Source: Escherichia coli (GTDB lineage: Bacteria > Pseudomonadota > Gammaproteobacteria > Enterobacterales > Enterobacteriaceae). Taken from it: DNA of 64,000 nt. Below are positions 34,529 to 39,879 of the stretch, in pieces. How positions within the stretch are numbered: the first letter of the stretch is position 1; each line of letters starts with the position of its first letter. Below the pieces are notes generated by a model. The model made no database searches. It had not been told where the DNA came from and saw only the letters and a list, made by a program, of their open reading frames with translations. The DNA lies in assembly GCF_044324875.1 (NCBI RefSeq), contig NZ_CP172185.1. One strand, given 5' to 3'. A program made the position numbers and the translations under genes.

Positions 34529-35188
34529 ATGGCTAACTGGTTAAATCAACTGCAATCCTTGCTTGGGCAAAGCAGTTCTTCTGCCTCCTCGTCTGCGGAT
34601 CAGGGATTGGGCAAACTTTTAGTGCCAGGCGCATTAGGCGGACTGGCTGGGCTGCTGGTCGCAAATAAATCAGCACGTAAACTTCTTACGAAATATGGCA
34701 CCAACGCGTTACTGGTTGGCGGCGGAGCGGTCGCGGGTACGGTGCTGTGGAATAAATACAAAGATAAAATTCGCGCGGCGCATCAGGACGAACCGCAGTT
34801 TGGCGCGCAAAGTACGCCGCTGGATGAGCGTACGGAACGTTTGATCCTTGCGCTGGTCTTTGCCGCTAAAAGTGATGGTCATATTGATGCCAAAGAACGT
34901 GCGGCAATCGATCAGCAATTGCGTGAAGCCGGTGTGGAAGAACAGGGGCGTGTACTCATTGAGCAGGCAATCGAACAACCGCTGGATCCACAACGCCTGG
35001 CTACCGGGATTCGCAATGAAGAAGAGGCGCTGGAAATCTATTTCCTGAGCTGCGCGGCTATTGATATTGACCATTTTATGGAACGCAGTTACCTGAATGC
35101 ACTGGGTGACGCGCTGAAAATCCCCCAGGATGTTCGTGACGGCATTGAACGCGATCTCGAACAGCAAAAACGTACTTTGGCGGAATAA
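34529..35188 (+). CDS. yebE: Inner membrane protein YebE (DUF533)
   Basis: 219-aa [44 protein letters not shown]... Confidence 0.85.
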
Positions 35189-35351
35189 TTCCGCTCTCAG
35201 GATAGCCTGAAGTTGACTATTTCGGGCTATCCAGAACCGCACAGCCATTTGAACAGGCTGATTTTCTCTGTCTGCATAACATTCGATATCCGCGCCATTA
35301 CCTGTCATCATGTGACTGCTCCCCGCCCTGTCGGGCAAGGCTTCCCACTTC

Positions 35352-36521
35352 TTAAGCCGCAACCGTCTGTGCTACGGATTTATGCTGGCCTCCATGGGCA
35401 GAAACGACGAGTCCCGCCGCTTGTAATTCCAGTATGCCCTTGCGTTTGATGTTGAGCGCCGCGTTGATATCGCGGTCATGTTCAACTCCACACTCTGGAC
35501 ACTGCCAGATGCGCTTATGTAATGGCATCTCCGACATTTTGTGACCGCAGCAGTGGCAGGTTTTCGAACTGGCGAACCATTGATCCAGTTTCACCAGATG
35601 CACACCTTTCTCTGTTGCTTTGTATTCCAGTTTTGTGATGAATCCAGACCATCCAGCATCGCCTATCGCACGAGCCAGATGGTGATTTTTCATCATATTT
35701 GCCGTTTTCAATGTCTCGACAATTACCGCTTGGTTTTCGTCAACAATTGCGCGAGATAACTTGTGCTGGAAATCGGCACGGGCACTGGCTACCCGTTCGT
35801 GAACGGCTGCAAGTTGTATTCTGGCTTTGCGCCTGTTTGCGTTCCCTTTTTTCTTACGGGACAGTGCTTTCTGCTTCCGGCGAAGGTTGCGACTTGCATT
35901 GATTAGGTGGCGGGGACTGGCAATTTTATTGCCGTCCGATTTGATGACAAAATGCGCCAGCCCCATATCCAGCCCTGTCACATTTGATATCAGTGCAGGC
36001 TTTGCCGGCGCTTCCATCCCGTCGTCACAAAGTAACGACGCGTAGTATTTCCCGGTTGCGCTGCGGCTCAACGTGATACTTTTCAGCATTCCCGTAATTT
36101 CACGATGTAAACGCGCTTCAATCGGCAAGATTTTCGGTATTTTTATCGCACCATCAAGGACTTTTATGCCAACACAATGATAGCTCGATTGTCTGCCGTG
36201 TTTACTTTTAAAGGTAGGTTTACCTGCTTTCAGTTTCGGATTGAAAAAGTTAGAAAAAGCCACGTCGAGGTTAATTACCGCCTGCTGCAACGCAATAGAA
36301 TCATATTCTTTAAGCCATCCATACCGGCGGGATTTCTTCGCCACTGCAAGCAGTGGTTTGAGGTCTTTACGCGGGTTTAAATTTACGCGGTGCCGCTGGT
36401 AAGAATGTTTCTTGATATGCAGAGCTTTGTTGTACGCAAAACGCACTGCACCGAACTGGGCGTTGATAAATTCAGCCTGTTCTGGTGTCGGGTAGATGCG
36501 TACTTTTGTTGCTCTTAACAT
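35352..36521 (-). CDS. tnpB: TnpB (OrfB_IS605) RuvC-like putative RNA-guided nuclease
   Basis: 389-aa ORF; RuvC-like motifs TGLDMGLAHF, AVIVETLK and EHDRDINAALNI plus zinc finger CHCCGHK...CPECG; architecture typical of IS605/IS607 TnpB. Confidence 0.85.
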   Translation of the reverse strand: MLRATKVRIYPTPEQAEFINAQFGAVRFAYNKALHIKKHSYQRHRVNLNPRKDLKPLLAVAKKSRRYGWLKEYDSIALQQAVINLDVAFSNFFNPKLKAGKPTFKSKHGRQSSYHCVGIKVLDGAIKIPKILPIEARLHREITGMLKSITLSRSATGKYYASLLCDDGMEAPAKPALISNVTGLDMGLAHFVIKSDGNKIASPRHLINASRNLRRKQKALSRKKKGNANRRKARIQLAAVHERVASARADFQHKLSRAIVDENQAVIVETLKTANMMKNHHLARAIGDAGWSGFITKLEYKATEKGVHLVKLDQWFASSKTCHCCGHKMSEMPLHKRIWQCPECGVEHDRDINAALNIKRKGILELQAAGLVVSAHGGQHKSVAQTVAA

Positions 36522-36577
36522 AATCAGCGCTCATTGATATAATGCTTTTATTTTAACACTTTAGGTAAATATATCAA

Positions 36578-37003
36578 TTGAGTAATCATGATGATTTACT
36601 GGCGGGATTTCTCCGCAAACGACACAGTGTCAGTAAGCTGGTTGTGCACCTTATTTTTACGACAAAGTATCGACGCAAACTATTCGACAGTCAGATGATC
36701 GCTCAGTTGCGTGAGGCTTTTGGCTCCGCTGCGGCAAAGCTTGAATGCGAAATTATTGAGATGGACGGGGAGCCAGACCATGTACACCTGCTGGTTGCCT
36801 ACCCGCCAAAACTGGCGGTCAGTGTGATGGTCAATAATTTAAAATCGGTATCATCACGTTTGCTACGCCAGCAGAACGCGCATTTACGTATGCAGAGTAA
36901 AACGGGGCTTTTGTGGTCGAGATCGTACTTTGTCTGTAGCACCGGAGAGGCAACGATTGAAACGCTCAGAGCCTACGTTCAGAGTCAGTCAACACCTGAT
37001 TGA
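36578..37003 (+). CDS. tnpA: IS200/IS605-family Y1 (HuH) transposase TnpA
   Basis: 141-aa ORF with HuH motif HVHLLV and C-terminal Tyr region SRSYFVCSTGEATIE; ORF-track first codon is TTG and no in-frame ATG precedes the conserved N-terminus. Confidence 0.75.
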   Translation: MSNHDDLLAGFLRKRHSVSKLVVHLIFTTKYRRKLFDSQMIAQLREAFGSAAAKLECEIIEMDGEPDHVHLLVAYPPKLAVSVMVNNLKSVSSRLLRQQNAHLRMQSKTGLLWSRSYFVCSTGEATIETLRAYVQSQSTPD

Positions 37004-37132
37004 TCTTTAAAGCCCTGCGGGCTTTTCGCCTTATATCCCCGCCCGCATTGGGCGAGGGTTTACGGCGTTTTTCGCTAAGCAATGACTACCCTGTTTCGCT
37101 TGCATCTCCGGTGAGTTTTGCCACCCTTATAA

Positions 37133-39879
<2,747 letters not shown>

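Follow-up and report, generated by a model that had tools for sequence, protein, structure and literature searches.

The stretch of DNA analysed here (the window) comprises 64,000 nucleotides of an Escherichia coli chromosome, in which the gene order yebE, insertion, ptrB, exoX was found. Alignment with the empty yebE-ptrB site of a K-12-type genome delineated an insertion of 1763 bp (positions 35312 to 37074, minus strand) that is bounded by ...CATCAT and CTAAGC... and lacks a target duplication. Identical 1763-bp boundaries recur at two other E. coli insertion sites. The insertion is a complete copy of ISEc46 with standard IS200/IS605 anatomy. The element name is that of RefSeq, where the identical protein is designated "IS200/IS605-like element ISEc46 family transposase". 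Orientation was set by tnpB and the TTAG target, which places LE at the high-coordinate end. Among 5426 complete E. coli genomes, 449 carry tnpA at 99% identity or more, and the yebE-ptrB insertion site is occupied in about 400. A literature search for ISEc46 returned genome-survey mentions only, with no functional study found.

The element carries two divergent genes separated by 56 bp. tnpA (36578 to 37003, plus strand), supported by the ORF list, RefSeq and profile matches, spans 426 nt, ends with a TGA stop at 37001-37003 and encodes 141 aa. tnpB (35352 to 36521, minus strand) starts with ATG and encodes 389 aa; it was identified from the ORF list, Pfam and NCBIfam. Its product matches the Pfam families HTH_OrfB_IS605, OrfB_IS605 and Cas12f1-like_TNB as well as NCBIfam guided_TnpB (339.7 bits, cut-off 100), as expected for the second ORF of the IS605 group. 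No Rfam family, whether of a guide (omega/re) RNA, an antisense sRNA or another kind, matched 35000-37300 at E≤1. Three substitutions private to the window, at 35337 and 35372-35373, lie in the 3′ end of tnpB and the RE region, which is expected to hold the scaffold of the TnpB guide RNA; the TnpB C-terminus reads ...KSVAQTVAA in the window, and all four further E. coli copies in the comparison have KSVTQTVAA.

DNA folding and alignment of LE with RE located a subterminal imperfect hairpin at each end. The RE hairpin (35321 to 35340, minus strand; top strand CCTTGCCC-GACA-GGGCGGGG) lies about 10 nt from the RE end (...GCAGTCAC|), and the LE hairpin (37037 to 37058, minus strand; top strand CCCTCGCCC-AATGC-GGGCGGGG; z = -3.6 for the LE region) lies about 22 nt from the element end. 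The two hairpins, CCCTCGCCC..GGGCGGGG in LE and CCTTGCCC..GGGCGGGG in RE, are related and on one strand; subterminal imperfect palindromes in place of terminal inverted repeats are characteristic of IS200/IS605 elements. Comparison with the empty site placed the target, TTAG (CTAA on the plus strand; 37075 to 37078, feature on the minus strand), directly 5′ of LE, with no duplicate at the other end. The bases adjacent to LE at three independent sites were CTAAG, CTAAC and CTAAG, and the RE-side sequences were unrelated. The presence of CTAA(G/C) beside the tnpA-side end indicates that the element inserted 3′ of TTAG as read on the sense strand of tnpB; the empty site, CATCAT|CTAAGC, thus shows the duplication-free insertion 3′ of a tetra- or pentanucleotide that typifies this family. 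A further, GC-rich hairpin, AAAGCCC-TGC-GGGCTTT (37009 to 37025, plus strand; read from the sequence and the DNA fold), follows the tnpA stop by a few bases and precedes the LE hairpin. A terminator scan did not detect it; it may possibly serve as a tnpA terminator or form part of LE function.

The tnpA frame opens at a TTG (36578 to 36580, plus strand), which is indicated as the initiation codon by the sequence, the ORF list, RefSeq and the alignment of relatives. The nearest in-frame stop on the 5′ side is the TAA at 36566-36568. Since ATA TAT CAA are the sole triplets between this stop and the TTG, no in-frame ATG or GTG is available upstream, and a preliminary description of the locus was correct on this point. 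It had also noted an ATGATG at 36588-36593 in another frame, terminating after about 33 codons; the frame assignment (+1) holds, and the ORF is 36 codons long (36588 to 36698, plus strand). On the evidence of the ORF list and of relatives, in which the underlying codons vary, this ORF is incidental. RefSeq/PGAP annotates the same 426-nt TTG-start CDS (WP_000064873.1) with no pseudogene flag. Genome-wide, E. coli start codons are about 83% AUG, 14% GUG and 3% UUG, and GUG and UUG belong to the class of codons that initiate at 10-100% of the AUG level, with efficiencies below that of AUG (10.1101/063800). TTG is therefore an uncommon yet canonical bacterial start codon and no anomaly per se.

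The protein encoded from this TTG has the features of a full-length transposase of its family. It is a Y1 HUH protein within the size range of IS200/IS605 TnpA (about 130-155 aa) and has no DDE domain. Residues 17-137 cover Pfam Y1_Tnp end to end (1-121 of 121; E=5e-39, 133.5 bits, cut-off 23), and NCBIfam transpos_IS200 (NF033573) matched with 141.8 bits (cut-off 55). The HUH motif is H68-V-H70, in the context ...PDHVHLL.... The full catalytic set expected of the family, comprising the HUH histidines, the tyrosine and the C-terminal-helix glutamine, is present as H68, H70, Y133 and Q137; these residues align with those of solved TnpA structures (2EC2, 2A6M and 2VHG), the comparison including IS608 (...KQYIENQ), ISDra2 and Sulfolobus TnpA. 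In an alignment of 30 homologues (from Providencia, Proteus, Hafnia, Klebsiella, Salmonella, Serratia, Photorhabdus, Xenorhabdus, Yersinia, Vibrio, Shewanella and Endozoicomonas), H68, H70 and Y133 were invariant and Q137 was at least 90% conserved. At the N-terminus, L8, H16 and S17 were invariant, and residues 12-15 and 18-20 nearly so.

Conservation of the N-terminus operates on the protein. From E. coli to Vibrio and Shewanella, residues 8-20 are kept as amino acids and their codons change synonymously (for example, GGA TTT CTC CGC AAA CGA CAC vs. GGG TTC CTC CGT AAA CGG CAT); Leu8 alone is encoded by six kinds of codon among relatives (CTG, CTT, CTC, CTA, TTG and TTA). Because residues 8-20 are conserved as amino acids with varying codons, translation must begin 5′ of codon 8. 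In the tnpA frame the ATGATG at 36588 reads AAT-CAT-GAT-GAT (N-H-D-D), within a variable part of the N-terminus where relatives have, for instance, CAT CAG CAT GAG, AAT CAT CAT GGA or AAA CAC AAT GAA. Codon-by-codon comparison across 67 loci revealed no frameshift in the window tnpA, and none of the related loci compared has an ATG-initiated N-terminus in the +1 frame.

These comparisons bear on two alternatives to initiation at the TTG. The preliminary description had offered either weak TTG initiation or a frame disruption, in which a 1-nt indel near 36585-36595 would have put an ancestral ATG (the ATGATG at 36588) out of frame, making tnpA a pseudogene and leaving tnpB orphaned. The sole support for a disruption is the ATGATG itself, 10 nt 3′ of the TTG and in another frame. 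The peptide from the TTG to the Pfam domain (MSNHDDLLAGFLRKRHS), however, keeps its frame across dozens of genera, in which its codons have changed synonymously; the ATGATG is missing from relatives such as those with CAT CAG CAT GAG or AAA CAC AAT GAA, no relative starts at an ATG in that frame, and PGAP places no pseudogene flag on tnpA. With an intact frame, no indel, and the ATGATG accounted for as N-H-D-D, the disruption branch falls away and its probability is negligible; the TTG branch stands, as this start is annotated by RefSeq, the N-terminal peptide is kept across genera, and TTG is found in all 13 loci with at least 82% identity. Alternatively, the TTG might lie in an untranslated leader, with initiation at a downstream in-frame codon (CTG at codon 8 or GTG at codon 23). 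The NCBIfam and Pfam profiles begin at residues 13-17, so that the first dozen or so residues form a subfamily-specific extension, which speaks for this alternative. Yet residues 12-20 are nearly invariant, L8 is kept as a residue and not as a start codon, GTG23 falls inside the first beta strand as aligned to solved structures, and NTG-AGT is fixed at the homologous position family-wide. A downstream start thus appears very improbable, although not to the same degree as a broken frame. We consider it highly probable, from these sequence comparisons, that the TTG at 36578 is the real initiation codon and that the gene encodes an intact, frameshift-free Y1/HUH ssDNA transposase whose non-ATG start was inherited within the subfamily.

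An in-frame ATG 8 codons 5′ of the start in some relatives was considered and rejected as an initiation site, as it is the G-extended -10 box TATAATG and probably precedes the transcription start. Gene callers extend the ORF to this ATG in P0006, P0060, P0069, P0077 and P0087; in the window, the ATG derived from TATAATG meets a stop after 3 codons.

The distribution of start codons was determined in 80 related tnpA loci taken from one-genome-per-species contigs, by reading the codon aligned to position 1. In the 67 relatives with the N-terminus present, this position was occupied by GTG in 42, TTG in 13 and ATG in 9; the remaining 3, which are degenerate copies, had a non-start triplet. The motif CAA-NTG-AGT was fixed at the start. 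TTG was found in 13/13 loci with at least 82% protein identity to the window TnpA (Pluralibacter, Photorhabdus, Proteus, Serratia, Xenorhabdus and two MAGs labelled Collinsella and Paceibacterota), and GTG in most of the remoter relatives. Intact ORFs of 137-150 aa numbered 60 (59 relatives and the window copy) and formed 46 clusters at 95% identity, of which 38 have a non-ATG start (30 GTG and 8 TTG) and 8 start with ATG. GTG and TTG account for about 85% of tnpA loci vs. about 17% of genes genome-wide. Judged by this alignment, the non-ATG start is a conserved trait of the subfamily and not a lesion of the window copy, the ISEc46-like enterobacterial clade having TTG and the majority of the marine gammaproteobacterial relatives GTG. 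ATG is tolerated, as the 9 relatives attest. Start-codon types cluster phylogenetically with few independent switches, and their conservation could partly be inheritance.

Several relatives are decayed. Premature TGA codons occur at codon 7 or 8 in L009 and L054, L059 is out of frame, and the start codon is mutated to GAT or GTT in L051 and L064. Real tnpA pseudogenes therefore exist among the relatives, and the window copy is not one of them. The two MAG loci (L002, JAIJJM010000608.1, and L007, JAHEOE010000054.1) are short contigs with ISEc46-like elements whose TnpA proteins are 99% and 91% identical to that of the window. Their assignment to Collinsella sp. and Candidatus Paceibacterota far more probably reflects mis-binning of enterobacterial DNA than a true occurrence in those phyla.

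Consensus scans of the 56-bp spacer predicted a near-consensus sigma-70 promoter for each gene. The predicted tnpA promoter (36515 to 36543, plus strand) is TTAACA-17 nt-TATAAT with a TG extended -10 (11/12 consensus), and its -35 overlaps the tnpB start codon. The predicted tnpB promoter (36550 to 36577, minus strand) is TTGATA-16 nt-TAAAAT, also with a TG (10/12 consensus), and its -35 hexamer (36577-36572) directly adjoins the tnpA TTG. Promoter-like boxes are found at equal distances in relatives, the GTG-start clade having TTGAAA-16-TATAAT for tnpB. The predicted transcription starts, at about 36550 (plus strand) for tnpA and about 36543 (minus strand) for tnpB, are divergent and only a few bp apart, so the two polymerase footprints would overlap. 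A Shine-Dalgarno-like AGGT, read from the sequence, lies 11 nt 5′ of the TTG (36563 to 36566, plus strand), and GG or AGG at -10 to -15 is conserved in tnpA relatives.

This arrangement suggests how little transposase might be made. From TTAACA-17-TGaTATAAT, tnpA would be transcribed efficiently into an mRNA with a leader of about 28 nt. Its translation would be poor, since the start codon is the near-cognate TTG and the SD (AGGT, 11 nt upstream) is both short and distant. Strong transcription with weak initiation would keep the transposase scarce relative to TnpB, which would fit the general low-expression strategy of transposases. It is likely, as far as the spacer can be read, that the transposase is kept low by the combination of a near-consensus promoter, a weak start codon and a weak RBS. 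IS200 of Salmonella follows a comparable logic by another route: a stem-loop conceals its AUG and near-perfect SD, these are also targeted by the antisense sRNA art200 and Hfq, and TnpA translation is very low (PMC4513863). IS200 and the window element share the transposase family and the logic of low TnpA translation; the mechanism differs, as IS200 is without tnpB and the window element has a weak start codon itself, no conserved sequestering structure being found and no Rfam match obtained. A hairpin was predicted at 36563-36600 in which the SD-like AGGUAAAU pairs with AUUUACU and encloses the UUG (-18.3 kcal/mol, z = -1.7), and in Pluralibacter (L003) one pair looks compensatory (A-U to G-C). 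An IS200-like stem-loop sequestering the SD and start is nonetheless missing in most TTG-clade and GTG-clade relatives, and is hence not claimed.

Near-identical TTG-start copies of ISEc46 are present at three E. coli sites: yebE-ptrB, an IclR-family regulator gene next to yfaY, and plasmid pEF7-18-51_1. The IclR-family gene is split by the element, both halves being annotated as fragments, and on the plasmid the element lies inside a hypothetical gene; the yfaY-side and plasmid copies differ by 1 nt in 1763. As near-identical TTG-start copies interrupt genes at two other sites, TTG-start elements appear to have transposed. There is thus good genomic evidence of transposition by elements with a TTG start. 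In genomic terms it answers to the observation that the preliminary description had named as refuting its proposal, namely intact elements with the same TTG-initiated frame and an active transposase. This evidence, read from insertion sites and copy numbers, concerns the G124 allele only.

The window copy belongs to a different allele. Compared with the other-site copies it carries G124E (36948) and a change of the SD from AGGTGA to AGGTAA (36567). Codon 124 (36947 to 36949, plus strand) is GAG (Glu) in the window and GGG (Gly) in related elements and in the multi-copy E. coli allele, as established by alignment and allele comparison; AGGTGA, with G at 36567, is found in the copies examined at other sites and in the closest relatives. 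Both window changes are derived relative to other genera (relatives L003, L022 and L008), and G124 is at least 90% conserved in the TnpA subfamily. Alleles were counted with 55-mers centred on the SNP, a design in which mismatched copies offer no 28-nt seed. The E124 allele was found in 368 genomes at 369 places; AGGTAA, never on a plasmid, was found in 340 genomes at 340 places; G124 was found in 85 genomes at 115 places, with up to 5 copies per genome and three on plasmids. It is the G124 allele that multi-copy genomes carry; the allele of the window is present as one copy per genome in essentially every case. These counts are suggestive of an E124/AGGTAA allele that is static.

Two further readings accept the TTG as the start and differ over its meaning. 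According to one, the allele of the window is impaired by G124E together with the change of AGGTGA to AGGTAA, so that TnpB would effectively be without a cognate transposase, the biological conclusion of the preliminary description arrived at along another path. The derived state of both changes, the conservation of G124 and the contrast in copy number all point this way. The genomes are not independent, however, and the single-copy pattern may reflect clonal inheritance in few lineages; the Sulfolobus TnpA structures (2EC2, 2F4F) have Asn at position 124, which shows that Gly is no universal requirement there; and the catalytic residues and both element ends are intact. Impairment is possible on this evidence, but we regard it as the less probable state of the allele. 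We also considered G124E as a knockout of a hinge glycine and rejected this; given the Asn in the solved Sulfolobus homologues, the substitution cannot be called inactivating. According to the other reading, the non-ATG start is conserved as a side effect of the constraint that the overlapping, divergent tnpB promoter imposes, and not in order to limit translation. The CAA that precedes the start codon is complementary to the TTG in the predicted tnpB -35 (TTGATA/TTGAAA), and the entire 56-bp intergenic layout is conserved. The start codon itself, however, lies at -36 to -38 of the tnpB promoter, outside the hexamer, where no strong sequence preference is known, and TTG, GTG and ATG are all found with the same flanks. 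A by-product of promoter constraint is accordingly unlikely, more so than an impaired allele.

A broader proposal can be put forward tentatively, with odds that we would place below even. The subfamily-wide GTG/TTG start, set against the tnpB -35, would be a selected translational throttle that, together with mutually exclusive polymerase binding, fixes a low TnpA:TnpB ratio. The mobile AGGTGA/G124 and static AGGTAA/E124 alleles would then record a stepwise silencing of the transposase with retention of the RNA-guided nuclease. The GTG/TTG preference of the subfamily would illustrate in compact form how a transposase is tuned down through its start codon, and the two natural E. coli allele classes offer a ready comparison for studies of TnpA/TnpB balance in IS605-type elements.

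With respect to known systems, the window element shows no substantial difference from ISEc46 (WP_000064873.1, WP_000064874.1). Its TnpA is identical to WP_000064873.1, and the TTG-start CDS, the divergent tnpB and the yebE-ptrB site are the same; it represents the E124/AGGTAA variant with a few private substitutions at the 3′ end of tnpB. The TTG start was thus already publicly annotated in a catalogued IS, and the gene is an ordinary and not a broken one. What appeared anomalous is a correctly annotated TTG start, and no claim of a pseudogene or an orphan TnpB should rest on the window tnpA. In IS605 and IS606 of Helicobacter pylori, tnpA and tnpB are divergent. These elements have in common with the window element the divergent genes, subterminal hairpins and duplication-free insertion by a short specific sequence, but their sequences are only distantly related to it, and its target is TTAG. 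The TnpA proteins of IS608 (2A6M, 2VHG and others) and ISDra2 (2XM3) belong, as judged by sequence (E about 5e-19), to the same Y1/HUH fold family; their HUH, Tyr and Gln residues align with those of the window TnpA, and the LE/RE hairpin geometry is similar. tnpA and tnpB are co-directional in IS608. About 12 additional, conserved residues at the N-terminus set the ISEc46 subfamily apart from IS608 and ISDra2, and the window TnpA has Glu at position 124.

Copies of tnpB without tnpA were also encountered. The IncY plasmid NZ_LR890538.1 (L087, positions 1501-2870) carries a tnpA-less derivative that retains RE, tnpB (98% identical) and a portion of the spacer; these run straight into the terminator-like hairpin and the hairpin of LE. 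This is the sole tnpA-less copy read through to LE. Further plasmids, about 87-121 kb in size, show the same 1248-bp match, which covers RE, tnpB and part of the spacer and includes no tnpA. Hundreds of plasmids from Salmonella and E. coli also have tnpB-only matches of greater divergence. Such plasmid copies are the true "orphan tnpB" relatives of ISEc46.
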